Source of the DNA: an uncultured Planctomycetia bacterium
Lineage (GTDB): Bacteria > Omnitrophota > Gorgyraeia > 2-01-FULL-45-10
Direction of reading: 5' to 3'
Assembly: GCA_964450115.1 (NCBI GenBank)
Contig: CAYVCD010000002.1
Coordinates: forward strand, 1 to 53,652
Length of the DNA stretch: 53,652 nucleotides
Of the stretch, positions 25,901 to 51,566 are shown in pieces. How positions within the stretch are numbered: the first letter of the stretch is position 1; the number at the start of each line of letters is the position of its first letter. The notes under the pieces were generated by a model, which searched no databases, was not told the origin of the DNA, and saw only the letters and a program-made list of their open reading frames with translations. A program made the position numbers and the translations under genes.

Positions 25901-26335
25901 AAGGTCGTGAAGATAGCTCCGGAGGACCTGCAATCTTTAAATGGCGGGAAAGATATAAATGTCGAATTCGCCGATGAGACAAAAGAGCTGGAGCTTCTCT
26001 TGAGGCACGTAAACTCTCGCTACCAAATAAATAACGGCATGCTCATGGGAGTCATTAAAGGCAGGACCGATGCTTTGTATGAATCCGGTATAAAGAACCT
26101 GGCCAAAGAAAAACATGTTCCTATAGTCTCCTTCGAGCATATAGAGTCCAACGATGTGGATAAGGAGATATACTCATTCAGAGAAGCCTTGTCGTTATTG
26201 ATCTCTATAACGAACGATACAACTCCCCTTAAAGACAGAGAGTGGTTTAAGCTGTTAAGGCCGATAGAAAAAGAAGATATCGATAGGATATATCAGGATT
26301 ACAGGCGTGCTCTAGAGGTGGCTATAAATGCGTAA
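19991..26335 (+). CDS. giant protein 2 (2,114 aa from ATG 19991), signal-peptide-like N-terminus, otherwise uncharacterised
   Basis: Uninterrupted frame. ATG 19991 gives MKLRFNKTYRIIAAMLLVAFLAQDISWA|YP. The track's TTG at 19943 lies inside the leader hairpin and is less likely. Only a HEAT-like repeat was recognised by eye (LLAALNDTNLQVRLAVISAMHKL, about 20521-20610). The stop overlaps the ORF3 start. Confidence 0.85.
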   Translation: MKLRFNKTYRIIAAMLLVAFLAQDISWAYPSQASNSNLAVPGLQNASVLSRLKKVLANKLFKKKGKSFNNSAIDTTIKKDPIPQNHLSANIVLPPDISAALKDIDEKNAKHIIDMIRRIYSHEKIGIMRQNHWLEYITGLLRDPRTQYKIVASKAAALIFEDSYHLDKMDEGSLRKAEEALLAALNDTNLQVRLAVISAMHKLVESRYDVRVYTLKQMAGRFDELIRKYHKVDATLEDAALRAMMALSSERDIELSSAYAVRAFDESLKAQAKTLGKNIRTFLKEERRSDFRMRGLSRVLDRCVADSGMGLTAYIRSVYFMKFIESLFSDEKTDIAKIKEYVLKLPRGSSNIDGRIIVYDPILKLADKELSEMYFTSGQDVRSLLSWRKDSEPVQAFDFYGEVFMTQSRVRFLEMADKGLVYYDANQKRFVTNPATFIDVASGETSMPDSDRITDGDALSMYIAELEAMECYIMSDAKSHEKNFLRPLFELLFNRLEKDFEGSEDFITYCRELIRRWPEGSYEIRKAMNDEEAILLEKFGKIKNSYATRNASIQLYGILLFYLTLKPQPYLGHLYDEYMKNSPPHNLSLYRTGISYHTRGDNVIYFFPKNLLFNGTNADALGKQRRGEAPFEDARKSENAAKILEAVKIWRRECPNLENRIKRFENNSTVSELIMKTSLIFSDPVHNVIRVVHAGRGRRLLFLPKNYLDSLRVDSEYDMKELAVWLNFAQRYLDIHDHMSGRKVAAHQVQKVLSELVRRSFEKEDTHLVEPEILKYRMSQLMKQDELIKYKDVLISLALEEAEVQVMEKISRPTKDELMILENAYGRIAHGYEVLGMKSRSERAYNGMADIITKIQSTDPWALPYELQVDLILTALRFGRWEDFINELKILLTGKGYPRDIRWTELSYIMKEIITPASMGPRSLESTIMRALAAQIAAADPRSAEVIKETADQANGMLSKYFKNPFGNLGMDDITGCPSPEALERLKKGEDNPNSLIDVENRLVRKVAGFESCTDIGRMDPYSISMTTRTANTLEGMGYILNEFRKPVGDAGISDAEVALINKSAVVVNMMDKNGHEQSCLLKILSREDPVEKAVENFLRNDLSVYEGLAKNNGCKNIILVLGKKHPSYPTNIIVPSERGEDILIVSYGSGEQPEHINAASAGDAVKKSGISDPDALEAFLKIQKEASLQSVYKAAEYFIGIGTPGAERLLKMAVTKKGHFQEEFLGEFIEARAVEDNIRYSRVIELGMERFGAEVDFVLEVDRSKYQSNTKGGFELEDGVYLGESKTSDKSNSLERVIEGAVSDKVERYLRVALNKRKSESGNPNAPLIKGIIFAIGGETVRSEGVVDFTITRLEEGDNLRSDGIGTFLALIPDTIVARGRDRLTFKERSFISDLLSDLKARGMLDSARISSLVPILKAALMEYGLSRTQFMISDAIKEAGADPYIGQTQNKEIWNSVFRALGARTGISLNMDFQSQKFLIDREASVNGRTDLEISYWQSGLSEFKNTRGRARCEFEIAGLPGRWVPLIDEHDQVVIAHISDSGSQKALNDYFVFRPDVTSKDLLIDKELERLALGSERLLYYARSGADPVPVRIPVTVSYDEKLTSNVLIGYIKAAIGGSRLLYYFGQQIMKSPARWEAWGLEPELGSAGAIKAVARPFGILGDKDEGSLVFDRHEKMARVSDIVVLDNKGKFGIVAEFGFHDMFQLYHKYANSFIFMAQHGSKISGQSSRLPQSVLLYADDIAIGGKKAARESQGISARKLILERLEQILDRASSSYQKEPNMLMPRTVYFMLGGALTADRPAYFKLPVIAQFRWHKKEGKYIPVKSGLKILEGEDNLEGLFQAAYSYIKRAEGLIPGPLAKPEATVAPSLEIPGSADILSAALVLGLRIADSVPGTANAIDDVVNSKALVLFADDILERGTAADLAYTLRESSTLNNSTIVLYGKRPGRAELLEKIISSSAQDKGIKVVKIAPEDLQSLNGGKDINVEFADETKELELLLRHVNSRYQINNGMLMGVIKGRTDALYESGIKNLAKEKHVPIVSFEHIESNDVDKEIYSFREALSLLISITNDTTPLKDREWFKLLRPIEKEDIDRIYQDYRRALEVAINA

Positions 26336-32300: not shown

Positions 32301-35300
32301 ATGCTGGGTATGAGTGTTGTCAAAGCAATATATGTAGGAAATAAAGAAAAGAAGGACCTGCCTGCCGCCGTTGCGGCAAACGTGCATATTCCTGCGAAGC
32401 GCGGTCCGGACGGGGTATTGGAGATATTAAGGAGTGGGTCGTTCTCTGCGCCCACGCAGGGTGGCGAACCCGCCGCCATGTCGAAGCCGGAGCCGGAAGC
32501 GCAGATCGCGCGCGGCGTCAATACGACAAAATTGTCCGAAGAACTTGTTGCCGAACGGAAGTTGATCTACGATATCCATAGCCGATGGCCGGCGGCGGTC
32601 ACGGTATTCGGGAGCGCGAGGATCCCGGAGAGCGATCCGTCATTCGTTAAGGCAAAGGAGCTGGGAGTCGCATTATACCGGGCAGGCCTTTCGATAAGGA
32701 CAGGCGCCGGTCCGTCTATGATGGAAGCGCCTTTCATGGGCTATCTCGAAGAACGGGAAAGATCCGGCGCGGCCAAGGAGCTATGGAACACGACCCAGGG
32801 CATACGCATAGAAGGCCTGCAGATCGAGCAGCATACGACCAAGTTTGTTGAGGATAACTACAGCTTTGATCATTTTGTCACAAGAAAGATGGGCCTTTAT
32901 AATAACTGCCGCGGCATAGTGGTGTTTCCCGGGGGATTCGGAACGGTGGACGAACTTATTGAAGTATGGTTCAGGAAGATACCGATGGTATTGATCGGCA
33001 AGAGTTACTGGCAGCCTATCATAGACGCCATTTACCGAAGCTGGGCGGCAAAAGGATGGATGGAGTTGATCGAAGAGAAGCCGCTGATCACGGATTCGAT
33101 CGAAGAGGCAGTGGCTCATATCCGTTCGTCCAAAAAAGATCTTATGATAGAGTCAAGGGAAGATATGGAAGCGGCGAATGAGGATATAAGGTCCTCTCTT
33201 GTGACCCTCGAAACCTGGCAGCCGGCTGTTACCGTTATGGGTCAATCGGAGCTCTTAGATAATGTAGAAGCGGACGTGTTGACCGAGATGACGAAAGAAC
33301 TGCTCGCAAAAGGGATACCTGTGCGCTCGGCGACCGCGAACCATTACCTGAAAGTGACTCTGGAGAATGCCGCAGGGGACAAAAAAGATATGCTCCAGGC
33401 AGTACTGGCCGTTCCAAAGGAGAGCGCGCTAGTCCCGGGGCCGAATCGCATAGTTACCCATAATCTATCTAATCATCACGTTCTGGTAACCGAGAATTCG
33501 CGCGCTTTCGTCATTCTGCCCGGCCGCGCGAAGACACTCAGCCGTCTCTTTGACCTGGTAACGGTGATGCAGACAAAAAAAGTCAAGACCAGGCCCATCA
33601 TATTAGTAGGCAGTAAATTTTGGCAGCCGATAAAAGACGCGATCAAGGATGCGGCTCTCGAATATCCCTCAGGGCAGCTCATAAATCCGGAAGACGCTGA
33701 TTTGCTTCAAATAGTCGACACCGCCGAAGAAGCTCTTCGGATCATCAACATTGTAGATGCAGGTAGCATAGTTAGGGATGCGACCCGAATCGCGCGCCCT
33801 GGCGACATGCCGCCCGGCCCGAGAAATCCACGCGACAGATTCTTTAAACAGCCGCCGGATGAAGTATCGGAAGCGGCTACCAATAAGACGTATAAACCCG
33901 TGTCGCCTATCGGTGAAGACGATATTGTTACAGCGTTTAAGAAGGGATGGGAATACATCTGGATGCGCAGCACCAGAAAGGCAAAAGGCCGGTTCCTGCG
34001 GGAGGCCGCCAAAGCGCTGAAAAGAGAGCCGGGAGTATTAATAGTTAATGATTTAACATATGGGCTAAAGCGGATATGGGGGCACTCTGCGAGCGGGCTT
34101 ATAATATGGACAATGAAAAAATTCCGTATTAAGAATCCGACGGCTGCAATGAAGGCATTAAAGCGATATGTCGGTATAAAGGCAGTGCCGTGGACTAGAT
34201 ACGGGCAGCCTATCGGTGAAGACGATATTGTTACGGCGTTTAAGAAGAGATGGAAACACATCTGGGTGCGCAGCACCAGAAAGGCAAAAGGCCGGTTCCT
34301 GCGGGAGGCCGCCAAAGCGCTGAAAAAAGAGCCTGGAGCATTGACTGAACCCGATTTAAGGAATGGATTAAAGCGTGCATGGGGACGCTCTGCGAATGGG
34401 CTCACCAATTGGGCGAGAGAAGAATTTGATGTTCGGAGTTCAAAAGCGATTATGGAAGAATTGATGCGGTATGCCGGTATAGAACCAACGTCTCAGTCTA
34501 GACGTGTGATTGTAGAAGATATCACAGAAAAGACAATTTTACAGCATCTTAAGAAAAGGACCCGGAATATATGGTTAAGAAGCAACAGAGATGCCAAGAG
34601 AATGGCAGTCCTTTTACTTGCCAGAGAGCGGAACAAAGAGCCCAGAAAATTAAATGCGAAAGATTTTATTACTCCGATCCCATTATTTGGAAATCGTAGT
34701 ATAGGCGGAATTATACATTGGGCGCGCCACCACTTAGGTGTACAGGCGGGTGCTATGAGCAGTTATTTGCAAGCTATCCTTGACCTTAAAGAGTACCTTG
34801 GGATAGAAGATACTATTGTGCCGAAGAAGAGATGGGAAGCCAAGGTGGAGGCAGACTGGGGTGAGGTATGCGTCATACTGGATAAGTATGAGCATCTGAA
34901 AACCACGGAAGCAAATGTCCGCACGATCCTTAAAGGATGCCGTTTTAATAATAAGGAAACCGATCTGGCTATGGGACGGGAAGTTCAAAGAGGGAATCCA
35001 GCCGCTAGGGAAGCCATGATGATAGTTTATGAGACCGCCCTCGACTATCCGGCGGCAGGATTCAATAGAAGATATCCCGATATCAGTGTCGATGAATTCA
35101 AGTCCGCCGGCAGGATCGCTCTTGCCGGATGCGTTGAGCGCTATGATCCGGAAAGGGGTTTCGTATTCATAACGTTCATAGGCTACAGGAGCGACAGTAA
35201 GCGCGTCTTCGGACGCATCTCGGGTGCGATGGTCGATCTTGTCAGGAAAGTCCATGGCACCAGGCGAAAGGGGAAGGTGCGCGAAGTCCAGGGCGGAGCC

Positions 35301-38300
35301 CTTAAAGACTCTAAAGGTAAGGATGTGCCCTATATGGGCGAGGTCGCGGAAGGTGATGTCGCCAGAAGAAAACGTACCGAAAAAATGGCGGAACTATCCC
35401 AGGGGATCGCCGACCAAATAGGGGCAATACTTTCTAAGTCGCTTAAAAGTAGAAATAAGGAAAGAAATATAGAAATATTTATAGCAAATATTTCCGGTAA
35501 GCCACAATGGGAAATAGCGCGGCAATTTAATTTGACTGATTCCCGCGTTAGTCAGATCGTGAGCCAGTGCCGCCAGATCCTGCGAAACTCCAAAGATATA
35601 TTAGCTTCGAATGTTGTAGCATCCGGCGAGAGGATCGCGCGCCCTGGCGATATGCCGCCCGGCCCGAGAAATCCACGCGACAGATTCTTTAAACAGTCGC
35701 CGGATGAATACGGAGTGCCTTCAGCTAGAATGACCCCAGATAAGGATACCTGGCAGAATACGGATCCGCATCGCGAATACAGCCCGGCATTCAGCGAGAG
35801 CATCGTCTTGGCATTCGATAATTTGAAGCGGGACGGGGCGATACAAGAGACGCCTCTTATCTACATGCCGGCTCTAAGCAGGATGGCCGGGAAGAAGGTT
35901 TATCTGAAGGATGAATCACATCAACACGGCGGCTCGTTCAAGATACGAGGCGTGGCGTGGAGGATAAACGAGGCGATAGCGGAGCATATTAAAGGAATGG
36001 TCGAAGACCCGTCACTATGCGAAAAGCCGTTTTATATCGTTACGCAGACCGACGGAAATCACGGTGTCGCCACTATTGAGGCCACCAGGCTTTTGATAGA
36101 AAAATATAAAATGATCTATCCGGGTATCGCATCCGGCATTAATAAGATAGAGCCGATAGTATTCGGTATTAAGAATATGCCGGAAGTAAAAAAAGAGCTC
36201 ATGGCGAAAGCCCTCTCGGCTTACCGCAAGAGCGTTGGGCTTGCCGACCGGGGCATGGAGGACCTTGAATTTGCGAATTATGCCAAAGCCAAAGAAGCAA
36301 GGGAAGCATTTATCGCCGTAAATAAAGAGAGGTCCGCATACATAGAGCATGGAGGCGAAAGGATAATGGCGGGTCATGCAACGGCGGGTCTAGAGATAGA
36401 CGGGCAGCTTAAGATGCTCGGAATAGGCGACGACCGGAAGGTGGCGGTGCTCGTACCCGTCGGCGAAGGCGGCCCGGTGGGAATAGGCGCAGGAATAAAA
36501 TTAAATAGAAAGAATGCCAAAGCAGTGATAGTGCAGACGAGCGCATACCCGGCATTTGTGCGCACATTGCAAACAGGGGAGCTGGTATCCAATGAGCCCA
36601 ACCCGGCTCCGACAATTGTTTTAAAAGGTAAAAATATCGTATTTGAGGACGGCATAGCGGTCGATAAGCCCGCACCGGAAGCGGTCTCTGTAGCAGGGTC
36701 CGTCATAGACGCGGCCGTAGTTGTCGACTCAAGGTCCAGCCTTGACAGGGCCGCTCCTATATTATTGCGCGATCTGCGCGAGGCTACAAAAAATAATACG
36801 GCCGTAATAGGCGGCACCACATCAGCGACAGCAGAGGCGCTTATCCAATATCATGAGAGCCTGGCCGCGCTTAAAGAGGCGGATGTCATTGTGCTCTTTG
36901 GCACTGAAGGCAATGTCGATCCCGATCTTGTCGAATACATAGAATCGCGCATGAGAGAATCAGGGCCGTCACCGTATATGGAAAAGAATCATGATGCGTT
37001 AGCAAACGTCCAGATCATTCCGGCCAAAGAGAGTAAATATAAGACTTTCATTTTTGATCTTGGTAATGTGTTGCGCCTTTTTGATAATTCACGTATGGCG
37101 GCCGGTCTTAAGCCATATACGCATTTTAGCGAAGCGCAGATTCTAGAGAGACTTAAATCGTCCGAGGCAAAGCGCTTGTCCAGTATAGGCAGGATAGGTA
37201 ATGCAGATTTTATCAAGGCAATCAAAGAAGACCTTCAACTTAAAGACATAGACGATGAGACTTTCGTCAGGATCTATAATGATATTTACACTGATATCCC
37301 CCAGATGTTTGAACTCCTAAAGAAGCTTAAAACCGCCGGATACAGGATCGCGATACTTTCAGATATTACAAAAATACATTACGAATATACGCTGGCTACT
37401 TTGCCTGTAAGGCAGTATCTGGACGGATTCTTTGCATCATGCGAGCTCGGCGTTACCAAGCCGAACAGGGAAGCGTATTTGAAAGTCCTGTCCGCGCTTG
37501 ATGTAAGGCCCGAAGAGACGGTATTTATAGATGATACGCCTGCCAATGCTGATGGCGCAAAAAAACTCAATATTGCGGGAGTGCGGTTTGAAAACTTTAA
37601 AGTTCTGCTAGATGAATTATTTAAATTGGGTATTGCCAGCGATATGAAGGCGATTAAGTTGCGAAAATTGGCAGTGACAGGGGACGATCCAGAAGGTGCC
37701 GCCCCGCAAGCTCAAAACGATGAGGTGTCCCCAAATGGACCGTCCCCGGATACGGATGCTTCCAGCGCTACGGATAGGATGACAAAAGAGAGCAAGGTCC
37801 CTGAGAGGCACAGGCCGTCTTTTGGTCATCTGGTCTGGCTTAGAATAAGAAATATTTTTGAAAGAATCAAAGGCAGAAAGATAAACTATGTATCCGTATT
37901 AAAGGGCCTGCGAAAGTATGGCCCTAAGCATATTTTACTAATTACCGATTTTCGTGATGAGAAGAGAAGGATCGGAGATCTGATTCTATTTTATACCACG
38001 TTTGTGAAAGTTCTGCTTGGCCTCTATCCGGATTCAGACGTTACTATTGTGACAAGTCAGCCTGAGCTCTGGAGCAAGACTAATGGTAGGTTGAAGATTA
38101 TTCCGCAGGAAATGCTTATCAATATTGCGAGAAAAGATTCAGCTGGCATGCAGGCCGAATTGAAAAAGGTTAAGGAAGGGTTAGGGATAGATTTAATGAT
38201 AAACCTTGATAGGCATGACATGCCTGCTTTCAGGCAGGCAGCAAAAGAGGTCTTTCCGATAAGTTTCTTTGCCAATGCTGGCAAAGGGGCTTTGTTGAAT

Positions 38301-41300
38301 ACTCCGGATTTTGAAGAAGATTTGCCTCTCTTGCCATGGACGGACACATTTTGTAAGCAACTTAATATTGCCGGACAGGGACTTGATTTTGAAAGAGAAG
38401 CATTGGGATCGCATCAGTCAGACAAAAGAGATATATTATTCGATGTTACGCCCAAGGACAGGGAATGGCTGCGTTCGATTTTAGGCTTAGGCAATAATCC
38501 CATTCTATTACTTAATATATTCTCTATGAGGGAATGGAAGGACTGGCGGAACGCCGATGAAATAGCATATTTTATAACGACGCTTGTCAAAGAAAAGAAG
38601 ATGAAGGTTGTTATGCCGGCTCCCAGAAGCGCCGAACAACAGCAGCTTCTTATAAAAATATCCAAGCTGATACCGGCCGAGTTCAAAAAAGGTTTAATAA
38701 TCCCGGATCGCGGTTCACTGCAAACCTTGAAACTTATGATCGATGCGTCCGACTACGTGGTGACCGTCGATACGGGAGTAAGCCATCTCGCGGCCGCTTT
38801 AGGAAAAGAGCCGATAGTCCTATATTACCGCAGTTTTCGCAACAGGACATATTTTATTACGCTTCCGTGGCTGCCGTTTGCCACAAAAAAAAGCAAGTCC
38901 TATCTGACTTCAGCGATCCCTTCGGCATATCCGGCGGGAAAGATACTGGAGAAGATAGATTCGCAAATGCTTCGAAAGCAGGCTGTGAAGGAAGCGGTCA
39001 TGGTAAATGGCTGTGAAGTCATAACTAATGGCAAGAGTGAAGACCTTAAGTTAGAAATAAAAGGAGCGCTTGGCCTTAGAATAGAATATGACAGCGTTAG
39101 TGACGCGCTTGCGATAACGCGATCAGGACAAGTTCCATATTCAATTATTTTAAATGTCAAACCCGCGATCGATCAGAAAGAAAAAGGCGAAAGATTGTGG
39201 GCATATCATAGGACGAAGACAAAAAACTTTTCTTATCTTGACGAGAATAAGTCTAATGTGGAATTTTCCGATAGAGCATATGATAATCTCGTATTTGCTG
39301 AATCCGGGTCAGTATATTTGCATGCAGTTGCCGGCCTAAGCGTCATAAAGACCAAAGACGGCATTAAGATATACGGCGGGAACTATTTTAACGAGGCTGC
39401 GGACAGGATAACTGATCTACTGAAAGGTAAACAGCTCATCTATAGGAGGCCGGCGCATATATTGGAAAGGGTAAGAGAAAAGACCACCGAAAACGGCGTA
39501 AGGGATATTGTGGCCCGCTATTACGGTTTTGAAATATTGAGAGTGAGCGAAATTACAGGAGGCAGGGCGCAGGGTACGGTATTTCTCATAGAGACAAAAG
39601 ATTCGCGCAAGTATGTTTTCAAATTTTTAGGCAGAGATATAAAAGCTGCCGAAAGGCTTGTCCAAATATCGGGCAGTCTTAAAGAGTTCTTCCCGGCTCC
39701 CATAAAGGTAGCTATGCGTGATGAGCGCATTGTGAATGATGTTTTAATAAATGTAAACGGTGAGTTTGCCGCATTGGAGGAATATATCGAATCGCAGCGA
39801 ACAGGATCATACGATAGAGAATATTATTACAGCCTGGGCAGGAGGATGGCGGAATTCCATGAGCGCGGGAAGGCCTTGATCGATATGATCGGACCCGGTA
39901 GCGGCGGCTCTCTGCGGGGTTCCAATGCTATTTCAGCAGCCATGGTAAAGATGGAGCTTGTCATAGCCAGAAACAGCCTTTTGGTCAAAGCAGGCTTATT
40001 GAATAAGCCTGAGGAATATTTCCTTAAGATAAGTGATTCTCTGATAAATGAGTCGGAAAATATGTTGAATATAGATATAGAAAAGATCTTGCAAAATTCA
40101 CCACACAGACTTTTACACAACGATCTGTCAAGGGCAAATGTTTTGAAGGATGATTCCGGCAAATTGCGCTTCATCGATCTTGAAACATCAGGCGTTGGCA
40201 ATCGCGTACTTGATTTTACTCTGGCAATAATTGGCAACGCCGCATATAAGCCCCTAGAGTACGTGCCCGGAAGCCTTCAAGAGCTCATCACGGGGTATAA
40301 TTCGTACTCCGACGTACCGCTGACGGAAGATGAGGTTTTGGCGATAAAATGGCATATTATTCACAGGTTCCTTCTACAATTTATGGTAGATACAATTAAG
40401 AATCCGATAGAAAGAGACGGTCATCTTGACAAATTGTACAATGCATTTAAATCATACTGCGAGGAGTGTCCAATAAGCAAAGCAGGCGGTTCAAAAGTCC
40501 GTAAAGAAGGCATGATGCTGGATGCTGATGCGTCTTTGCAAAAGTTCGGCAATGATGATCAGCTTACTGAAGTACCGCCTAAAAGGGTGCCATTTGCCGT
40601 GAATTATCCCTTGGATATTTTTGAGGAAGAGACACCGGTAGGCTTGTCGGTATTTGATAATCAGGATGTGCTAAAACAGAGACTCAATGATAATATATAT
40701 TATTCTCAGGCACCACCCGACAGAAGAGAGAGGATATTTCAACGCATATTATTCCTGAAGAATGTTCTGCCATCCATCAATAAGTATTTCGCCGCAAATC
40801 ACCCCGAGCTTGAGATAATAAACATATCACTTTTTGGTTCATATGGCTATGCAGACGACGATGCTTCTCCTTCCGATATCGATTTTCTTGTCACTGTGCG
40901 CGGAAACATATTTGCGTTGGAGGAGATACAGATAGACCCTCAGCGGGATGACTTTTCAAAGTATCTTCCCTCATCAGTTAAGTCATTGGGATTCTCTATA
41001 AAGGGGGACGAGAACTTGCGCACCGGCGCTATAGATAAAACCACGTCGGTCAGGCCGCAGATGCAAAGGATCGTGCTGGACCGCACCGTTACAACATTGC
41101 GCGCGCGCCATATCGTTATATCAGGGCCAAATTTCAGGGAAGGACGGGACCTGATAAAGAGGAATGGATTATCGCATGTATCTGACTTGCTGTTTAATGC
41201 GTATATACGCCTGTTCGCAATAGATACTTTAAGAGGCGGATCGGAGGCGCAACGTCTGCGTAAGGTGCTTGCAAGGCTTTATGACGCGGCCATATATATG

Positions 41301-44300
41301 GCATATTTATATCCTTCTGAAAACGTAGATCCGGAGAGGATATATCAATTGAGAGTAAAGTTCGTAAATGGTAAAGCCGGGCAGGAAGAAGTTATCAATG
41401 AATGGGAAGCCGTTAAGTCCATTTTTGACAAGATCCATACAGAGTCGAGTGTCGTATCGGATAATTCCGGAGTGGCAGGGCGCATAGGCACCGGACATCC
41501 TAAGCAGTTATTTGCGTTCGATTATGACGGAACACTTGCGACTCCGGGTGGGCGCCTGAGCCATAATATGCTCGAACAGCTTGCGTATATACTTCTGGCC
41601 GGGCATGGAGTTGCGATAATAACAGCAAGGAATAAGGGGTGGTTCAGCGAAAACAATATATCTGTGGCCGCGTCTGTAATGGAGACCATCTTCCGATTGC
41701 GCCCAGCTATAACAGAATCTGAGCTAAACAGATGCATGGAAAAGATGTTTATGTTTACGGCGCGCGGAACTGAAAAATATTATTATCAATTTGCAGGCGG
41801 CACCTTAAATGAAAAGCTGGACATGAATTATTCGGCGTCATTCAGCAGCGATGATATTGCAAAGATAATGGATATAATACGAGCCATACTTCGAGATAAA
41901 GGCATTGAGGAAGATCTTGCAGAAAAAGAAGTTGTTGCCGTAAACAGGGAGCTTTCGGGAGCAATAAATATTCGCATATCGTTTAAAGCCGGAAGCAAGG
42001 GCATGATCTTAAAGGATGAAGTCGCCAATGAAATTAAAGAAGCTTTTAATAAAGAAAAGAGCTTATCGTCAGCTGCGGTAGAGATTTTTAGTAGAGGCAT
42101 AGGCATTAACCCCAAGGATAAGGCGGATGCTCTACGGCATTTAATGAAAAACATGGGATATAGCGGCATTGAATATTTTGGGAATGACCGTGATTCGGGT
42201 GATAAGAGCGCCTTTGAATTGGCGCAATCATGCAGAACGGGATTATTAGTATGTACCGAGGTGCCCGGGCCGGAAAGGATGCTGGAATTTATTAAATCTT
42301 ATAGAGGTAGGTCGCCTCCGCTACTTCCACTAAAAATACTCAAAAACAAAAAGACTAAGGATTTTGTCTTAAGGCGTCTAGGCCAATATTGGACTTTGAC
42401 GGAATTCCCGGTTGAATGGCTTGGTGAAATAATCGAACAGCTTGATAATTACTCCGATAACGAAGAGGTGGCGCTCAGGGTAGTACAGGAGAAGTTTCCA
42501 GAGCTGATAGATAAAGATTCGATGTTTAACAAAAAACTGAGGGCATTCAGGAAGATAAAGGTAAAGAATCTGGCCCAACGCGTTTCCTCATTTGTTAGTG
42601 GCCCTGTATTTATGGATTTTGGTGGCAGGGTGACTGATTTTGCGCGGGAGATTCTTCAGCAAAATACGTCTATGCAAAAAGTGGTTGTTACGGATATCCT
42701 GCCGCTTGACAAGCAGCCAGATGACCCACGAATAGAATTTGTGACACAACCGGAGTTATTCTCGACTTCGATGCCCCCTTCCTCCGTTGACACAATATTT
42801 GTATCGATGGTGCTTCATCATATGGACTATCTTACAAGACAGCGAACATTTAACCATCTGTATGACATATTGAAACCGGGAGGCCGCCTCATAATAGTAG
42901 AAGATAGTTATCCGCAGAACGATGGCGCAGCGAAGCAGGAAGACATTTTAATGAAGGAATTTTTGTCTTTCTCCGCACAGGAAAAATTCGAGCTTCTATG
43001 TTTCTTTGACTGGTTCGGAAATTGTCTTACCAGAAACCGGTCTAAAGCGATGTTAACCTATGCCTATGAACCGATGGAATATTGGGAGGGCCTGCTTTAT
43101 GGGCTTGGCATGAAAAAGATCGAATCGCAGTTTATCAATATCAATTTAGACCGTATCGACCTAGTGCCTCCGAAAGCATTGTTTGTATTTGAAAAGAATA
43201 CGGTAGGTCTATTGCCCAAACCGGAGTCGCCAGACATGGAGAAGGACGAGTCGCGGGGGAAGGATAGTTTATTAATGGATAAATTACCCGAACCTGATCA
43301 TAATCCTGATGAAGAAGGTGCCATGCCAGAAAGCGCCAACCCAGTCGCCAGTTCGGACGATGAAAAGCCTGCAAGTGATCCGCGCTACAAAACTTTGCTC
43401 GCACCGGAGCCCGGTAGTCCGGAAGAGGCGTACCAACGCCAGGTGAATCTGCCGGGGATCGGTGCGCCGTCAAGGCATAGTTTAAGATTCCGTCAGAGTG
43501 ATGATGTGAGCGAGCCGAAACCGCCGACGAAGATGGCGGGGGAAGAAAAGCTGGGAGTTTTAGTACGGGACGAATCCCATGCAAACGTGGCCGCAACCGG
43601 AAAGCACCGCGTAATAATATTGACTCCACGTCCTAATAGCGGGCGACATGAGCGAGAGATGAAATTAAATAGAATAAAGCATTCCCGTCAGCTTGACAGT
43701 GCTATAGGTGGGTTTTTTGAGGAGATATTGCCTCGGGCGCCACAGGGAACCGTAATGCGCCGTGAAATTAGCTGGCAGGAAAGGATAGGCACCGCTTTAG
43801 AAAACCCGAAGCTCGATGGAAACAAAAAAATCAAGGGTTTGAGTAGCGGGATAACCTCAATAATCGATCCGGGTACTCATAAGATCAAAGATATCAATGC
43901 GCTGCTTACACTAAACGCGAATTTTTACTTAGCAAACGGGCTTGGAGATATATTCGCATATTTCCAACATATTTCGCAGAATAGGCATGAATACGGATTT
44001 GATATCCCAAGAGAGGTAAGCCTTCCGGCTTATATCCTGTATTATTTTGGATTTGTATGGAAAAATCCGAAAGATCCGGAAGACGATGTATGGAAACGAT
44101 ATCTTAGGACGATAGTCAGGCCTGTAACGTACCCTTCTGCAGACCAGAGGCGGGAATTCAGAAGTAAATTGACAGCAAGCCTTAGTGAGGCAGGCAGCCT
44201 CAACCCGCTCGGAAAGATCAAAGACTTTGACGCTTTCACGCGTGTTGATAGCGTAGATTTCCTTATGAGTAACGGATCTAGCAGCGTATATCGTAGCTTC

Positions 44301-47300
44301 AAAACAGCGAGGCATGGCGGAAAGATCCAACCTACCATGTGGCTTAACGGGTGGGACGGCCTTGTGCTATATATTTTTGAAGAACTCGGATTTATCGGGC
44401 TTAAGGAATGGATAAAATGGTTAAAACAGGCATTTATGAGCGGAGATTTTATGGCCGCGGATGATATTATTATGAGGCTCGAGGCCATTTTTAGCAGATC
44501 GGCGGATAGTCTCGACAGAGAAGAGGCTGCCGTAGATGCGATAAGAAGAGAGATGTCGCAGATAAGGCTAGGAGAGGCTACAAGATTAGACGATTTGTTC
44601 GAGAAGTCAAACGATCCCAGGAAAGCTATCCCTGGCCACATAAAGAGATTGCAGCATTATATTTCCGCCGCGCAATTATCGCTTTCAAATAGGCGTACAA
44701 CGCCCGAACAGTGCGGCCGGCTCCTGGACAAAGCTGGATACAATCGCAAAATTCTGGCGCGATTGGAAGAGAAGGTCAAGACGCTGGAAGAGATCAGAAA
44801 AGAAATTATCGCCAGGTTCGGCGGAGAAGTAAAGAGCGAAAATATTTGGAACCCGAATCATACTGCTATCCTCATAGGGCAAAGACGCACCCTTCAGAAC
44901 CTGAAGAAACAACTGCCTGCAGTGGTGCGTGGCTTAAGGAAAATGGCCAAGGGGCTACCTGAGCCTGTTTATAAGAGGTCCGAAAGAGAAATTCTAGGTA
45001 TTAGCTATCTGCGAAGCAGGGCATTGCTGACGAGGCTATTGTCCAGGCTTCCTCCTGGTGTGCCTGCCAGATCGGATACTCTTGCCGCTGTAACAATAGG
45101 AGACAGGGAAGAAGTCAGTCCGGGCATGGTCGCAGAAGCTATAAAGATGTGCGGCGGCATACCGGGCATAAATAACGATGTTCTGGCAAGAGGTGTCTCG
45201 ACGCAGGTGGCCATTACTTTTGAACGCGCCAGATTGTTCCAGAAGCGCCTTGAGGAGTGGAATCCCGAGGATCATGAATTCGTAACAGACCCGGAGATAA
45301 GGGACCTCGAGGCGACGATAAATGAACTGGAGAGGCACTTCATGCCATATTTTACGAGGTCTATAAAAGTTCTAGAGTCGAGGCAAAAGGGCGCGTTTAA
45401 TGAAAGAATAGATATTTTAAAAAAGCAAAGAAGAGAAGCATCGAAGTTTATCCCTGACTTAAAACGCTTGCTCGCCCTGCAAGCCGGAGATGCGCAGCTG
45501 CCGGCAAATTCGCTTGCCCAGCAAGCAGCCATGACAAGAAATAGTCCGTCCGTAAATAATACGGCCATCCCTAGGAGCGCTGAGCGAATAATCGCAGATA
45601 TTAATACGCGTATCGAGAATATTGTCGAGGATGACGATCTCGGAAATATGGCCAAAGAGATGCTGCAGCTGCACTTATTAGCAGAAGTAAAAACAATCGT
45701 CGATATGCTTGATAATTTGAAGCCGTTTGATCAAGATGGCAGGTTGCAAGAAGGCCTGTTATCCAGGCTTGCCACTGCAGTTCGCGATCGCGGCTTCGAT
45801 CCTGTCGAATTTTTAACTTCAGAGGACAAAATGACTCCCGCAGACAGGAAAATACTGGCCGCCATAGGCTACTTAAAAGAAAAGAGAGCCCGCATATCCC
45901 AAAAAGCCATAGCCCGCAGAGCGGGCCTTAATGAAAATACCATAACAAGGCGCATGAGAGCCAATCCTAAAATAGATAAAGCTGTAAAAGAATTGCTGCC
46001 AGGCTCTGTCGATAAAAGGATATTAGATGCCATAGATAGATTACTTAAAAGGGGCGGCCGTATAATCAAAAAAACTATAGCCCTTGAAGCAGGCCTCGAC
46101 AGGTACACCATAACTAAACGCATGAAGATCAGTCCTAAAATAGATAGAGCTATAAAAGACGCATTGCTGGCTTCTATATATAGAATAATACGAGACGCCA
46201 TAGGCCACTTAAAGATTAAAAATGTCCCCATAAACAAAGAAGCGATAGCCCTTGAAGCAAAACTCGGTGTGAGTTATATGGCTAAACTTATGAAATCCAA
46301 TCCTGAAATAGATAAGGCTGTAAATGATGCGTTACCGGATTCCACAGATGATAAAATACTGGCCGCCATAGGCTACTTAAAAGAAAGAAGAGTTCAAGTA
46401 TCCCAAAACGCCATAGCCCGCAGAGCTGGCCTTAACAATAAAACCATAGCAAAACGCATGAGAGCCAATCCGAAAATAGATAAAGCTGTAACAGAGGTAT
46501 TACCTGATTCTACCGATGAGAAAATACTGGCTGCTATAGACCGTTTGAGAGAAAATGGGATCCCGCTTACCAGAATATCTGTATCGCAAAAGTCAGGTAT
46601 TAGTAAGACTACCATATCATACCGCACCAAGGCCAACGTTGAGATAGGGCAAGCACTCTTTGAAGCGAGACATCCTGACGCAAAGTCGCAGCAAGCCGCG
46701 CCTGCCACATCAGGCGGCGCAGAGAGGCCGGCAGGTGATTCGCACTACATGATGTTGCTGCCACCGGAGCCCGGCAGTCTGGAAGAGGCGCTCGATTGGG
46801 TTCTGAAACGCGAGCCAGCGGGAATCGGCCTTCCGTCAAGACATAGTCTAAGATTCCGCCAGAGCGATGATGTGGGCGAGCCGAATGACGATGGGGTGTC
46901 CCAGAATGGAACGTCCCCGAAGGCAAGTGTTCTCCGGAAAGTAGCGAAAATGCGCACTCTGACCGAAAGATTGATCGCATTGCGGGAAGAGAAAAAATTG
47001 AGTACGGCAGAATTGGCAAACAGATCCGGCATATCGGAGCAGGCCATAAAAAAGATAGAGGCAGGCAAAGTGCGCTGGAATATTAGTATAGCATTCATCG
47101 AAAAGCTTGCGGACGGCTTGGGGGTAGAGGCAGATATTCTGGATTTAAGGGGGATATCGCCCATACCAAAGAAGATTCTTAAGAAGGCAAGGAAATTGCC
47201 GACAGTTGGAGAACGCATACGATTGTTACGAGAGTACAAAGGCTGGAGTTTACAATACCTTGCAAAAGTGTCGGGCATATCAAAGATGTATATCTTTATC

Positions 47301-50300
47301 GTAGAAAAAAACAAACGAGACACGAAACCGTCGCGTGACATTCTCAGAAAACTTGCCAGGGCTCTGTGTGTAAGCGTTAAGGTTCTGGAAGCAGGAAGCC
47401 AAAGACGAAAGAAACTGACCAAAAAGTTTATCGCTGAAGTTAAAACGATGCCTACCATAGGGAATAGGTTGAGGGCATTAAGAGAATATATGGGTTGGAG
47501 CATATCGGAACTTTCGCGCAGGACAGCCGCGGCCGATAAGCGAGCTATACACCCATCCTATATATGGGCTATTGAGAAGGGCAAGGCGAAGATCGGTTCG
47601 GTTCCACGTCCGAAAACACTTAATAGACTCGCCCATGCTTTTGGATTAAGCGCGACGATATTCAAAATAAATAAGCTCAAAAGCATTCCTTCGGAGACGC
47701 TGAAAAATATAAGAGCCCTTCCTACGAGAGGGGCACGGCTTAAAGCCGCAAGGCATTATATGGAATTGACCCAGGAAGCCTTGGCTAAAAAAGCGGGCTT
47801 TAATAGAACCACTGTGCAGCGTGTTGAAAAGGATGATGGAGAGAGTAAAACGCCGGCACATACTATTGAAAGCCTTGCCCGGGCCTTAAATATTGATGCG
47901 GAGGTACTCGCGGGGCCCAAGATAATGCCCGCCCATATAATAGCGAAAGTAATGGCGGAATATCCCACAAGGGGCGGCCGCATGAAAGCATTCAGGAAGT
48001 ATAGAAGGTATTCTCAGGACGACACAGCTGCTAAGACGGGTATTGCGCCATTTACATATAAGAAAATAGAGAACGATCTTGTACCAATACCTCGCGGCAT
48101 GACAATTGTGAGGATCGCGTTCGCCGTAGGGATATACCGCAATGTATTTAATGTATTCCCGGGCGAGGCGTCGCAGCCGTCCGTTTCGAAGAATACAAAA
48201 GCCGACTTGATGAAATATGAGTTTGCTACAGCTAATGAGGAGGATATAGCAGATGTAAGAAGACGGCTTATCACTAAATTGTTGGATTCGTCAAGCGAAA
48301 GACTTGCCAAAAGCACGATATGCGCGATGATGCAGGATGCCGGTGATGTAGAGATAACGCCGGCCGATGTGATGCAGGCCATGGAAGAAGATTCCTATCT
48401 TACTTCGCATAAGAACTTTTCTGGCAACGGTAACGGGAATGGATCAGCTGATCCGGCGGCATTGGCTATGACTAATACTTTAATAAGCGCGGAGTCTCAT
48501 ATAGAGAGGGCCGCAAAGGAACTCCGGGAGCGTAAGTATATTCTTGCAAAGAGGGAATATGAGCAAGCTCTTTTACTTGTCCGAACGGAAAAACAGCTCG
48601 TAGTAAAGGCCGCGCAGATGATCGAACGGGCGTCCAAAGGCATGGCTGACTGCGAAGAAGCCGTATCTCGTTTCGTAAGGATGAGATTTGTCGATGAAAA
48701 AGAAGCGATACGGAAGATGCAATTTATTCTGGACCAGATGGTTGAGGTAACAAGAGACCGTATCAGGCAGGAATCGAATGAGGCCACGGAACCGGAATAT
48801 TATGAGAGAATAACGTCCGATCTCATGCGTTATAGTGGCTCCTTGATGACGGAGATGTTCAAGGACACGTCTGCTGTGGAGAGAAGGCTATTTGCCGCAT
48901 CTATCGATAACATAAGAAACGAAATACAATCATATATAGTGGCTATTATCAGAGGGTTAAAAGAGGAACAGACGGGGAGTTATTTACGGCCCGCGCCGCC
49001 AGCCACCGGCCCGGCCGGGGAGCGGTCTACAGCCGATCCGCACTACAAGACATTGCCCGCACCGGAGCCCGGTAGTCCGGAAGAGGCGTACCAACGCCAG
49101 GTGAATCTGCCGGGGATCGGTACGCCGTCAAGGCATAGCTTAAGATTCCGTCAGAGCGATGAGAATATGGGCAAGCCGAAGACGCCAACCGTCGCGCAGG
49201 GCGCTGAATCCGCCGATTTTAGAAAATATTTCAACAAGGTGGTTGAAACGATCTGGCAGGCGGATCCGGCAGAGAGAGAGGCGGCAGCCGTTTATTTCCA
49301 GAAACTTGCCTCGACCTCAAATAAGGCAAGGGAAGAGATCTTTGCCGGGCTCAGGGCGAGACTGAATTTCCAGGACCCCTCTGAAAAAGCAAAAGCAGAA
49401 AATATGGCTATCTTTTATATTGTTTCCCAAATATCCCCCGGTGGGAAAAAAGGCATCAGAAATGCCATGATCAAAGCCAAGATGAAGTTTTTAACTGAAG
49501 CTCTCCCTCTGGCGGGAAGGGAGTTTTTTGAAATGCTTCCGGATGTGCTGGTATTTAAGCCTGAATCTAACGTTGATGAGCAGATGGAAAATCTGGGGAA
49601 TATGGATGGCATTACCTCCGCTAGTTTGAAGCACCATTTACTTACGCCACTTGGCGAAATAAAATTCGGAGTTCTAAGGGGGTATGAAGGATTGAGCGAT
49701 ATGGCAATAGACAATCTTGTAAAAAATAACCAGCGGCTTAGCCTTAGCAGGGCAATGATCTTTTATTATATGGATGATTGCGTCATTCCGCTGAATGAGT
49801 TAATGGCGTGGTGTAATAAAGTCCTGGTGCATGCGGCGAAAAAATGGGACCCTTGCCGCGGAATACGGTTTTCCACTTATGCGTACGAAGCCATTAACAG
49901 GACAACATCAAGGCTCCGTAGAAAAGAAAAAGATAGGAGAGAGAAGGAGGTTGTTCTATCGGATGATGTTTGGGGAGTTCCTGACTATTGGCCGACAGAC
50001 GTCGCTCAGGAAGTCGAGGATTTCGAAGAGATAACCTTACTGCGTCAAGCTTTGGCGGCCTTGCCGGAAACAGAAAGAACTATAATGGAGTGGTATTACG
50101 GGATCAACCTGCCTGCGGATCTTTCGGTAAAAGGCGGCGGCGGAATGACCATCGAACAGATCGGCGAGCGTTTGGGATTGACCTACGCGCAGGTAAAGAA
50201 GCGCAGGACGGTCGTTGAAAAAGGGTTAAAGGAACTCTTCGAACGCAAACCCCGGCCGCAGCAACTGGTTTGGTTAGATAAAAGATTTGTGGATAAGAAT

Positions 50301-51566
50301 AATATTACGGCGCCAGCAGAAACAGCCGAGTCAGATTTAAAAGCACCGCTAAAGATAAGCCTGCCATATGAGCAAATGAAGTATAAATCTATCGGTGCGG
50401 ATAGCCAGGTTTACCGATGGCAGCACGACGGCGAGGATAGGGTGATCAAGGTTTACGGACAGGCAACTCCCGAGCAGATCCGTACCTACCAGGACGTAAC
50501 TTTGCTGGCAAAAAATATTATGGAAAAAGAGACTAGTGATACGGTAAAGATACGCGGCAAAGAATACGCCGTAATTTACGAGGTTGTCCCTATTGACAAT
50601 ATATTTATCGATCAGAAAGGCGTAACCGTAGGAGAGAGCCGTTTTGTGGATGGCCGGTCTCTTATGTGGCTTCGAGACACTGATGCCAGTACGGCGATAA
50701 CAGAATTACTGAAGAAGAGGAATAAAGAGTTTTTCAGGCAAACGGGATGGGGCGGGGTCGTCTTGTTTCAGTCGTGCAATGTTATGATAGATATTTCGCC
50801 TCAAGAGAAGAAGGTGCGGCTGGCCATTACCGATGTATGCCCATCGATAAGCGCATTATCCAATGTCAAGGTAACGACGGCTCCGGAAGGCGGGAGCCTT
50901 TCAGTTGAGCCGGAGCAGTTCTTGCGGAATATTGTTAATACAAAAGAGCTTTCGCAAAACATGATAGAGGGAATACTCTCGGCGCTCTTCTCTAATAAAG
51001 AAGTTACATTTGCTTTCAATAAGAAGCTCAAGGGATTAGAATCGGCTCAGTTAAGGGCATTGGTAAGACAGTTGATCGCCTGGAAGGATGCGACAGGCCA
51101 GAAGAATCCCAGGATGAAGGCATTGCTGGCCAGATTCAATGTTTTCGAATACAACGATCTTAAAAAAGAGCTCGATAGCCGTGGCATAGATGTGAATGCC
51201 GGAAACGGCCTGATATTCGATTATGCTCCAAAACCACAGGACGGATCGGCAAATGCATTCGGTTCCGCGGTGAGGCCGGTCTATATAGTTGAAGAGGGCG
51301 ATTCGTTCCCCGAGAACTACTATTATCCATTACTGGAGATGGTGACTATCTCTGTCGCGAAAGAATTACTGCAGTGGAATGAGAGAGAGCTACGTGAAGC
51401 TCTTGCCGCTTCAAATATCACCGCGGACACATTCGGCATAGATGCGGCTATCGATGAGAAGCTCGGCATCCTCATATTCAAAGTCCTGCCCAAGATGGAG
51501 CGGTACGATAACGGTGATAGAATTGACCGCTACACCCGCCTCCTGCAATTCCTGCATTCAGCTTAA
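26328..51566 (+). CDS. giant multidomain protein 3 (8,412 aa): concatenated sigma factors, HTH arrays and small-molecule enzymes
   Basis: Uninterrupted 25,239-nt frame. GAGGTG Shine-Dalgarno at 26315-26320, 7 nt before ATG 26328, which overlaps the ORF2 stop (ATGCGTAA). The alternative ATG 26424 gives [22 protein letters not shown]. Domain motifs are listed as separate features. Confidence 0.9.
   Translation: [8412 protein letters not shown]
27444..27795 (+). other. duplicated transmembrane hairpin (2 x 66 aa, about four TM helices) in ORF3
   Basis: [49 protein letters not shown] and [49 protein letters not shown], period 198 nt. The layout resembles small 4-TM GtrA-like proteins, but this is unverified. 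Confidence 0.6.
29211..30030 (+). other. complete sigma-70 family module #1 (regions 2-4, RpoD/RpoS-like) embedded in ORF3
   Basis: [62 protein letters not shown] (regions 2.1-2.4), [15 protein letters not shown] (region 3-like), [28 protein letters not shown] (region 4.2 HTH). Confidence 0.88.
31606..32430 (+). other. HAD-IIB (Cof / sugar-phosphate phosphatase-like) domain #1 in ORF3
   Basis: Motif I FDYDGTL, motif II [8 protein letters not shown], motif [13 protein letters not shown]. Confidence 0.8.
32562..33135 (+). other. LOG-family (TIGR00730 / 'lysine decarboxylase-like' nucleotide hydrolase) domain in ORF3
   Basis: [14 protein letters not shown] ... [10 protein letters not shown] ... 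[17 protein letters not shown] (PGGxGTxxE motif at about 32928-32955). Confidence 0.8.
33215..33755 (+). other. second, degenerate LOG-like domain in ORF3
   Basis: Same layout as the preceding domain (AVTVMGQSE ... [20 protein letters not shown] ... [15 protein letters not shown]), but the PGGxGTxxE motif is replaced by PGRAKTLSR. Confidence 0.55.
33789..33863 (+). repeat. junction repeat A, copy 1 ([25 protein letters not shown])
   Basis: 75 nt, 73/75 identical to 35634-35708 and in the same reading frame. Confidence 0.95.
33906..34810 (+). repeat. three tandem ~101-aa coding repeats (period 303 nt)
   Basis: Copies starting at 33906 and 34209 share a ~130-nt near-identical stretch ([35 protein letters not shown].EPG). 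The third copy (from about 34501) is divergent ([34 protein letters not shown]...). Confidence 0.85.
34971..35597 (+). other. sigma-70-like module #2 (divergent region 2 + region 4 HTH) in ORF3
   Basis: [33 protein letters not shown] parallels [32 protein letters not shown] of module #1. Region 4-like [42 protein letters not shown]. Confidence 0.6.
35634..35708 (+). repeat. junction repeat A, copy 2 ([25 protein letters not shown])
   Basis: 73/75 identical to 33789-33863. Together the two copies bracket the 3x101-aa repeat + sigma #2 block. Confidence 0.95.
35847..36955 (+). other. PLP-dependent fold-type II enzyme domain (threonine/serine dehydratase-like) in ORF3
   Basis: [39 protein letters not shown] (PLP-lysine motif SFKIRG at 35935-35952), [16 protein letters not shown], Gly-rich loop [15 protein letters not shown]. 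Confidence 0.8.
37041..37634 (+). other. HAD-IA-type phosphatase domain in ORF3
   Basis: Motif I [9 protein letters not shown], motif [10 protein letters not shown], motif III [10 protein letters not shown], motif [14 protein letters not shown]. Confidence 0.75.
37926..38960 (+). other. glycosyltransferase family 9 (heptosyltransferase-like) domain in ORF3
   Basis: [40 protein letters not shown] (N-terminal GT9 pattern) and [27 protein letters not shown] (C-terminal D(S/T)G..HLAAA.G.P motif). Confidence 0.78.
39513..40470 (+). other. aminoglycoside/choline-kinase-like (APH family) phosphotransferase domain in ORF3
   Basis: [23 protein letters not shown] (nucleotide-binding lobe), catalytic [10 protein letters not shown] (from 40116) and FIDLETSG metal-binding motif. 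Confidence 0.78.
40732..41310 (+). other. Pol-beta-superfamily nucleotidyltransferase domain in ORF3
   Basis: [25 protein letters not shown] (GS ... DxD motif, 40808-40900). Confidence 0.7.
41505..42300 (+). other. HAD-IIB-like phosphatase domain #2 in ORF3
   Basis: [14 protein letters not shown] (same DYDGTL motif I as domain #1), VAIITARN motif II, [14 protein letters not shown] as a divergent motif IV. Confidence 0.65.
42606..43195 (+). other. class I SAM-dependent methyltransferase domain in ORF3
   Basis: [13 protein letters not shown] (motif I-like), VVVTDIL (acidic post-I), [28 protein letters not shown]. Confidence 0.7.
43377..43502 (+). repeat. junction repeat B, copy 1 ([42 protein letters not shown])
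   Basis: 126 nt. A 64-nt core (GCACCGGAGCCCGGTAGTCCGGAAGAGGCGTACCAACGCCAGGTGAATCTGCCGGGGATCGGT) is identical in copy 3 (49035-49160). Confidence 0.95.
45849..46688 (+). repeat. five tandem 168-nt (56-aa) coding repeats, HTH-like units
   Basis: Unit [12 protein letters not shown]..(I/V)SQ.[26 protein letters not shown].S.D. Unit starts AAAATACTG recur at 45849, 46353 and 46521 (multiples of 168). Units 1 and 4 are the most similar at DNA level. Confidence 0.85.
46737..46868 (+). repeat. junction repeat B, copy 2 (divergent: [44 protein letters not shown])
   Basis: Same frame and same flanking logic as copies 1 and 3. PEPGS.EEA and [12 protein letters not shown] are conserved; the middle differs and has two extra codons. 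Confidence 0.85.
46953..48160 (+). repeat. array of five XRE/Cro-type HTH domains in tandem within ORF3
   Basis: Five units of the form (I/V/R)G.R(L/I/M)..(L/A)R.....(S/T)...LA...G(I/F).......(I/V)E.....: [95 protein letters not shown]..., [72 protein letters not shown]. Confidence 0.8.
49035..49160 (+). repeat. junction repeat B, copy 3 ([42 protein letters not shown])
   Basis: Near-identical to copy 1 at nucleotide level (64-nt perfect core, a few substitutions outside it). Confidence 0.95.
49681..50250 (+). other. sigma-70-like module #3 (region 2 + region 4) in ORF3
   Basis: [32 protein letters not shown] (region 2 pattern FD...G..FSTYA) and [15 protein letters not shown]...[32 protein letters not shown] (region 4). 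Confidence 0.68.

Follow-up and report, generated by a model that had tools for sequence, protein, structure and literature searches.

A giant gene with a repeated junction cassette

We analysed a 53,652-nucleotide (nt) stretch of contig CAYVCD010000002.1 (assembly GCA_964450115.1, positions 1 to 53,652, forward strand; GTDB phylum Omnitrophota), hereafter the window. It is a stretch of bacterial chromosome with truB, ribF, pnp, uppP, ftsK, rodZ, miaB and pgsA, and among these genes lie three oversized open reading frames (ORFs) of 2898, 2130 and 8412 amino acids (aa). The largest of them contains the element studied here, cassette B, a repeat of about 55 aa (~165 nt) present in three in-frame copies.

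The host gene of cassette B lies at 26328..51566 on the + strand. It measures 25,239 nt, its frame is open over all 25 kb, and the same gene was called in two European Nucleotide Archive (ENA) assemblies. The protein begins with an N-terminal signal/anchor and transmembrane (TM) hairpins, after which come some 20 enzyme and regulator modules. A Kyte-Doolittle scan located a hydrophobic segment at aa 28-50 and the TM hairpins at aa 387-423; the hairpin region recurs at aa 440-488. Modules recognized by Pfam include methyltransferases, Glyco_transf_9, HAD/HAD_2, Lysine_decarbox, three sigma-70 factors, and arrays of winged helix-turn-helix (HTH) and XRE-HTH domains. Weak Pfam matches to APH/choline kinase mark kinase-like modules in the gene. 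Glycosyl hydrolase, peptidase and NUDIX domains were not detected in this ORF by Pfam.

Copy 1 of cassette B occupies 43341..43520 (motif 43377-43502, aa 5684-5725), copy 2 46701..46886 (motif 46737-46868, aa 6804-6847) and copy 3 48999..49178 (motif 49035-49160, aa 7570-7611), all on the + strand. Against the profile of the three copies they scored 122, 114 and 118 bits, respectively, and the profile gave no further match in the six-frame translation of the window. These copies had been reported in a preliminary description of the same DNA, and their translations proved exact, with motif starts at aa 5684, 6804 and 7570. A fourth copy, suspected there at 27870-28050, scored 0.4 bits against the motif profile and was discarded. 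At the DNA level, the three copies formed one repeat family (43362, 46722, 49020). The regions 43341-43504 and 48999-49162 were 86% identical over 164 nt (23 differences). Within them, a perfect 64-nt core, also previously reported, was recovered at 43400..43463 in copy 1, where it covers PEPGSPEEAYQRQVNLPGIG, and by DNA comparison at 49058..49121 in copy 3 (both + strand).

Cassette B is a bipartite linear motif, in which D[PS][HR]Y..L..PEPGS.EEA is followed by 8-10 variable residues and then by GIG.PSRHSLRFRQSD[DE].[GS][EK]P. Invariant over four copies, namely the three of the window and one in a second genome (ORF L001, see below), were the 12-residue core PSRHSLRFRQSD, the D..Y..L..PEPGS.EEA block and GIG. 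The spacer of copy 2 was diverged (LDWVLKREPA), and its flanks and 3' tail (DVGEPxxxxVxQNGxSP) resembled the L001 copy.

The same 8412-aa gene was carried by two ENA assemblies that are independent and derive from different samples (k141_86793, 71 kb; k141_422114, 50 kb). Over 42775-53652, which includes all three copies, k141_86793 differed from the window by one single nucleotide polymorphism (SNP; 49033) and k141_422114 by two (49033, 51241). The assembly k-mer, 141, is longer than the 64-nt identical tract. Since the three independent assemblies agree, the cassette repeats are not an assembly artefact. The SNP at 49033 lies at the edge of copy 3: the residue just before the copy is Ala in the window and Gly in both ENA contigs, and Gly also stands at this position in copy 2 and L001.

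Selection on the cassette peptide

Differences between the copies were unevenly spread over codon positions. In the core PGIGxPSRHSLRFRQSD, the proportion of nonsynonymous differences (pN) was 0-0.08, compared with 0.17-0.74 for synonymous ones (pS). The ratio of nonsynonymous to synonymous substitution rates (dN/dS) between the window copies and L001 was 0.16-0.19. Variable sites in the conserved blocks fell on codon positions 1, 2 and 3 in the numbers 5, 6 and 19. An antisense ORF was rejected as the constrained product, since in every antisense frame two or more of the four copies contain a stop. Because third-position differences dominate and no antisense frame is open in all copies, the constraint points to the sense-strand peptide. 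PSRHSLRFRQSD is invariant despite synonymous changes, which therefore argues that cassette B is under purifying selection for its sense-frame peptide.

Homogenization of the copies

Synonymous distance (dS) was 0.22 between copies 1 and 3, about 0.8 from either of them to copy 2, and about 1.15 to L001. Given 23 differences over 164 nt, a perfect run of 64 nt had a permutation P of about 1e-4. This run spans the spacer, the peptide part least conserved among the copies, and constraint therefore cannot explain its identity. Just outside the 164 nt shared by copies 1 and 3, identity fell to 20-35%. The copies were also mosaic: the upstream flank (78% nt identity) and the longer 3' tail (DVGEP....V.QNG.SP) are common to copy 2 and L001, and the spacer type is common to copies 1 and 3 and L001. 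The ends of the cassette were ragged and differed between pairs of copies. No terminal inverted repeats were found at the cassette, where the only inverted repeats were internal and imperfect.

Low dS within the genome, the 64-nt tract, the mosaic segments and the ragged edges point to gene conversion between short homologous patches, or else to a very recent cassette duplication, by which the copies within the gene became homogenized. Gene conversion or recent duplication had already been preferred in the preliminary description over a mere constraint on linker composition, a preference that the position of the tract in the variable part, the dS values of 0.22 vs ~1.15 and the mosaics all favour. 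An in-frame element of the miniature inverted-repeat transposable (MITE) or repetitive extragenic palindromic (REP) kind was also considered. With ragged ends and without terminal inverted repeats, the cassette does not qualify as a discrete mobile element.

Distribution of the cassette

A HMMER search of 1.84 billion representative proteins returned one true match, at 109 bits. This was L001, an ORF on contig JAPLMH010000121.1 of 'Candidatus Omnitrophota bacterium LacPavin_0920_WC70_MAG_48_9' (Lac Pavin). The other four matches of the exhaustive protein search (P0002-P0005) were repetitive proteins whose weak matches had been summed, and they were rejected as false positives. L001 was found independently by a genome scan, with 75% aa identity over 59 residues, and its core had 90-92% nt identity to copies 1 and 3. 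Two further matches of the genome scan (L002, L003) were short and partial, came from Alphaproteobacteria, and had E values of 1e-5 and 1e-4 that are relative to the candidate stretches only; they were not counted as copies. Word-indexed protein searches with the cassette B profile, the profile of a second junction element (element A, see below) and the module after copy 1 gave no match. Two metagenome scans yielded a single chance match, with a stop codon inside, and a viral scan with the cassette gave none. The motif search in other genomes, as suggested in the preliminary description, thus added one true copy, in a large ORF of an Omnitrophota metagenome-assembled genome (MAG). Over the databases searched, cassette B is lineage-restricted. 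It is previously undocumented and known from two genomes.

In L001, too, the cassette separates modules of a large ORF, one that runs open to the end of its contig. The flanking modules had no detectable homology to any module of the large ORFs in the window, so that the cassette is the sole piece shared.

Position in the protein and predicted structure

By Pfam annotation, copy 1 lies between a methyltransferase (aa ~5397-5535) and an unannotated 745-aa module, and copy 2 between the winged-HTH array and the XRE-HTH array that starts at aa 6879. Copy 3 follows a helical module and precedes the third sigma-70 module (sigma-70 #3), whose Sigma70_r4 domain (aa 7908-7959) begins about 300 aa downstream. 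A disorder-propensity scan of the 8412-aa protein delimited about 13 disorder-prone linkers. Copies 1 and 3 fell in the two segments with the highest disorder propensity in the entire protein, and copy 2 was also in a highly disorder-prone stretch. The claim that the repeat is a conserved element of module boundaries was thus borne out by the Pfam positions, by the disorder-prone linkers and by the junction in the second genome, where the cassette stands between other modules.

AlphaFold2 (AF2), run on the aligned three copies, predicted coil and one short helix, PEEAYQRQV, with a predicted local distance difference test (pLDDT) score of 59 and a predicted template modelling (pTM) score of 0.19. 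In view of the disorder-prone location and the predicted coil, cassette B seems to be a linear motif set in a flexible linker rather than a folded domain.

A second junction element

The giant protein carries a second short repeat at module boundaries, element A (IARPGDMPPGPRNPRDRFFKQ[PS]PDE), in two copies that are 97% identical over 75 nt. Copy 1 (IARPGDMPPGPRNPRDRFFKQPPDE, aa ~2488-2512) lies at 33789..33863 and copy 2 (aa ~3103-3127) at 35634..35708, directly after region 4 of sigma-70 #2; both are on the + strand. The L001 locus has three counterparts: GTRVFFKQPPESMGE, GTRVNFKSSPEEMGEP and GTRVHFKSDPDKMGEP.

Elements A aligned with cassette B on a skeleton ending F-[KR]-[QS]-[SPD]-[PD]-[DE]-x-[VM]-[GS]-E-P, and copy 1 of element A has the mini-core F-[KR]-Q-[SP]-[PD]-[DE] in common with cassette B. 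In about 16,000 residues, the pattern F[KR][QS][SPD] was confined to the nine A and B junction elements, all of which have it. When the two profiles were compared, they aligned over 12 columns with P=0.004, and the hhalign probability was 8%. These likenesses are at most suggestive of a common origin of the A and B elements.

Several observations concern the surroundings of element A. Its two copies bracket a block made of three ~100-aa repeats and sigma-70 #2. Two of these repeats form a tandem duplication at 33905-34502, upstream of sigma-70 #2, with a period of 303 nt and 76% identity; they encode ~100-aa units of unknown function and are followed by a third, more diverged unit. After sigma-70 #1 there is a degenerate version of element A, PARVKPRFKGSP (aa ~1275-1286, window ~30150-30185). 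On the L001 contig, the cassette ORF is followed 45 nt on by a 1381-aa ORF (4082-8227) and then by a Fic/DOC protein (8336-9496). The 1381-aa ORF has N-terminal repeats of about 65 aa and its own A-type element, 74% identical over 50 aa to that of the first ORF.

Function of the cassette

Our leading explanation, held tentatively and at a little under an even chance, is that cassette B is a recognition peptide in linkers, most likely a processing signal, with its DNA also serving module exchange. The peptide would be read by a trans-acting factor, which is suggested because the cassette appears selected, disordered and independent of the neighbouring modules. Endoproteolytic cleavage at the cassettes is the role we consider most likely. 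It would free the C-terminal regulatory blocks, namely the unknown module with the winged-HTH array, the XRE array, and sigma-70 #3 with its C-terminal module. One possibility is a cut near the F-[KR]-Q-[SP] mini-core that is common to element A. Processing is ranked first also because three sigma factors and two HTH arrays plausibly need release; as a rule, sigma-70 factors and XRE regulators work as separate proteins. The conserved cassette DNA would in addition give homology at which modules exchange, and such a role as a recombination joint is indirectly supported by the same cassette having unrelated flanks in two genomes and by the probable conversion.

Several points weigh against this explanation. 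Searches of the giant ORF, the 2130-aa ORF, the remaining window genes and the L001 ORFs with Pfam (E<=1), and of the unannotated modules and neighbour ORFs against PDB sequences, turned up no protease domain; they were made at the level of sequence and not of folds. Their sole yield was a CheD-like module. Cassette B is present in only three of the ~13 disorder-prone linkers, or in five if element A is counted, and as a minority of linkers carry either element, the cassette is not a universal junction signal. Protease sites are typically much shorter than the conserved part of the cassette, which has ~42 aa in two blocks and fits a docking or binding peptide equally well. The kinship of A and B is weak, and the mini-core pattern is post hoc. 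The case for selection comes from four copies of two genomes, and AF2 is weak evidence for disorder of the cassette because its input, a three-row alignment, was shallow. With no protease detected, a minority of linkers occupied and a motif that suits docking equally, we infer the processing step and do not present it as a result.

A bolder form of the same explanation seems unlikely to us. In it, the cassette and element A would together make up the first processing signal to be defined in Omnitrophota giant proteins. The 8412-aa ORF would be a true bacterial polyprotein, cut at the cassettes by a dedicated protease that frees sigma factors and HTH regulators from a membrane-anchored precursor, and the same cassettes would shuffle modules between giant genes.

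The strongest rival, possible rather than likely, is a docking or regulatory short linear motif that is not cleaved. The giant protein would stay intact, and the cassette would bind a partner (for instance a scaffold, a chaperone, or a secretion or assembly factor) or be modified, for instance by phosphorylation of Ser in RHSL or RQSD. A bipartite conserved part of ~42 aa, with hydrophobic anchors (Y, L, I, L, F) and one predicted short helix, is a pattern typical of binding motifs in disordered regions. The restriction of the cassette to a subset of linkers, the empty protease search and the kinase-like modules in the gene also agree with docking. However, the window yielded no reader domain (FHA, SH3, PDZ, 14-3-3-like), and no partner can be named. 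Nor does docking explain why repressors and sigma factors would be functional as tethered parts of a membrane protein of 930 kDa.

A neutral origin of the repeat is improbable. The cassette would then be recently copied linker DNA, at most a homology patch for recombination, and its peptide would have no specific function. The perfect 64-nt tract, the loss of similarity outside ~164 nt, the mosaic copies and the unrelated modules in the two genomes would all suit such an origin. A neutral linker would drift, however, and here the 12-residue core is invariant in four copies of two genomes at a dS of ~1.15, with differences mostly at third positions. The ragged edges and the lack of terminal inverted repeats also speak against copying as a discrete mobile element.

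Still less probable is a translational pause, in which the Pro/Gly-rich cassette (PEPGSP, LPGIGxP; PPG and PPD in element A) would slow the ribosome for folding or membrane targeting. Polyproline motifs do stall ribosomes in an EF-P-dependent manner, Pro-rich strings are present, and the cassettes lie at module boundaries. Against a pause, PSRHSLRFRQSD is not a known stalling sequence, most linkers have no cassette, and there is no rare-codon cluster, since AGA and AGG are the commonest Arg codons in the window. Off-frame 'ambush' stops were also considered and occurred at background density (about 7% per codon).

Internal expression starts, by which an internal promoter or ribosome-binding site would give separate downstream modules, are largely refuted and retain very little probability. 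In the preliminary description, a marker of internal translation restarts was one of several roles suggested for the repeat, and each copy was said to be followed within 3-24 codons by an in-frame Met and a new functional block. Such Mets do follow the three copies, at 3, 11 and 27 codons, and the one at 46950 is where the XRE-HTH profile begins; the distance given holds for copies 1 and 3, but not for copy 2 (27 codons, 46950). None of the Mets at 43533, 46950 and 49167 is preceded by a Shine-Dalgarno (SD)-like sequence, whereas most true starts in the window have AG-rich SDs, and Met 49167 belongs to the [VM][GS][EK]P tail of the cassette itself. Promoter-like sites were not in excess (9 vs 8.9 in shuffled sequences), and none was in a cassette. 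No terminator was found in the cassettes, the counts equalling those of shuffled controls. A known structured RNA element was likewise rejected: no Rfam family matched in the window and covariation was weak, RNAalifold giving the cassette a covariation term of -1.12 kcal/mol with compensatory changes in 3 of 42 pairs.

A chimeric joining of separate genes through the repeat, for which a 64-nt exact repeat could mislead small-k de Bruijn graphs, has a negligible chance, as the window and the two ENA contigs (k=141) agree over all copies with 1-2 SNPs in 10.9 kb and the 25-kb frame is uninterrupted.

Known short signals, compared with the cassette by eye, did not fit either. For PEP-CTERM, there is no TM segment or basic tail after PEP. 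For the sortase signal LPXTG, the cassette has LPGIG, and copy 2 EPAGIG. For the Tat signal SRRxFLK, there is no hydrophobic region after the motif. Neither 2A peptides (NPGP), SecM (GIRAGP) nor PEXEL/RxLR fits.

Comparison with known systems

Giant multi-domain proteins of Omnitrophota, the 'Archaeovorins', have been described (West-Roberts et al. 2023, bioRxiv 10.1101/2023.11.21.568195; Nielsen & Lui 2026, 10.64898/2026.06.07.730766). West-Roberts et al. propose that these proteins are cleaved and call the cleavage points unknown. Both papers leave open whether the product is a single chain or cut, and neither describes a junction motif. Like Archaeovorins, the 8412-aa protein has an N-terminal signal/anchor, TM helices and a long chain of enzyme modules (methyltransferase, glycosyltransferase, HAD_2, Lysine_decarbox). 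A sister ORF in the window carries aldolase and phosphofructokinase (PFK), and an Omnitrophota MAG holds the sole relative of the cassette. In our analysis, the probable placement of the window in Omnitrophota was judged from the L001 match and from the protein architecture. Unlike Archaeovorins, the gene, at 25,239 nt and 8412 aa, is far below their defining threshold of >90,000 bp (>30,000 aa), it gave no match to glycosyl hydrolase or NUDIX domains, and sigma-70 and HTH regulator modules are unusually frequent in it. A C39 or S8 peptidase, which is an Archaeovorin trait, was not found in aa 1-990 (Pfam E<=1, PDB sequence search E<=1).

In polymorphic toxins, the Rhs motif PxxxxDPxGL plays a like junction role. 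In CdiA, conservation of the VENN motif lets new modules be recombined in, and proteolytic processing removes the motif (PMC9424206). There, a conserved peptide marks off exchangeable downstream modules (PMC9424206, PMC3150448), and cassette B likewise precedes unrelated modules in two genomes. By analogy, CdiA VENN is the closest functional counterpart of cassette B, with the Leu sites of MARTX next. However, cassette B has no sequence similarity to the CdiA and Rhs motifs, the protein has no PT-VENN or Rhs domain and no PxxxxDPxGL motif, and there are no toxin/immunity pairs. The cassette is also internal and occurs several times per protein, and its cleavage is only proposed.

In MARTX and large clostridial toxins, CPD autoprocessing takes place at Leu in unstructured segments between effectors (PMC2900308). 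As in MARTX, autonomous modules are joined by unstructured linkers in a very large protein, and in MARTX these linkers hold the processing sites (PMC2900308). Peptidase_C80/CPD was not found here by Pfam, nor were RTX repeats, and MARTX sites are minimal (P1 Leu) compared with a cassette whose conserved part has 42 aa. Since PT-VENN, Rhs, Peptidase_C80 and RTX are all absent, cassette B is, by domain content, a member of neither the CdiA/Rhs nor the MARTX family.

Viral polyproteins offer another parallel, as 3C, 3C-like and NIa proteases cut after Gln. A short peptide recurs at module borders there too, and F-[KR]-Q followed by S or P in the A and B elements resembles P1-Gln sites. Unlike in viral polyproteins, no chymotrypsin-like or papain-like protease was detected, and only a minority of the junctions carry an element.

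The cassettes provide candidate sites for testing whether giant proteins are cut. They are defined as such because the cassette appears selected, is sharply bounded, and is conserved in two genomes while the surrounding modules are not. The cassette is also a molecular handle on the assembly and rearrangement of modular giant genes. If it were only a docking or linker motif, it would be a lineage-specific curiosity.

Other features of the window

The ATG of the 8412-aa ORF overlaps the stop of the upstream 2130-aa ORF by 8 nt (26328-26335), which suggests translational coupling of the two giant genes. The 2130-aa ORF had no Pfam or PDB match at all. Downstream of the 8412-aa ORF lie LigT, CinA, ORF6N and recA. 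A similar hydrophobic signal/anchor (..AAF[IL]AQDI[AS]WA..) opens all three oversized ORFs (26409-26477, 20021-20077 and 1788-1862), and the ORFs of 8412, 2130 and 2898 aa thus appear to be a paralogous class of membrane-targeted giant proteins. In the 2898-aa ORF (1779-10475), a class-I fructose-bisphosphate aldolase (E=2e-88) and a phosphofructokinase are fused behind ~1700 unannotated residues. As predicted from its domains, this ORF puts glycolytic enzymes within a signal-anchored giant protein.

Two regulator arrays stand back to back in the 8412-aa ORF, with copy 2 of cassette B between them. The first, at 45838-46540, is a run of winged-HTH (HTH_24-like) units with a period of 168 nt, four copies of which were detected as DNA repeats. 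The second, at 46950-48137, is made up of XRE-type HTH domains, and Pfam matched up to four stretches in it.

The CheD-like module of the giant ORF (aa ~1492-1571, window ~30801-31040) matched PDB 2f9z_C, of the chemoreceptor glutamine deamidase fold, with E=4.6e-5, and no chemotaxis genes were found near it. At the boundary before this module, TLPKRHSLAIPGAEDD (aa 1474-1489, 30747..30794, + strand) was considered as a possible core-only remnant of the cassette. It scored 4 bits against the motif profile and was rejected as lacking statistical support; its exact 6-mer is unlikely by chance, but the pattern was chosen post hoc.

The linker between the HAD and glycosyltransferase modules (37716-37748, aa 3797-3807) contains NDEVSPNGPSP, and the cassette B core is absent from it. 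This string resembles the 3' tail of copy 2 and L001 (N..GVSQNGTSP / SVPQNGPSP), and it may be a remnant of the cassette or a shared linker sub-element.

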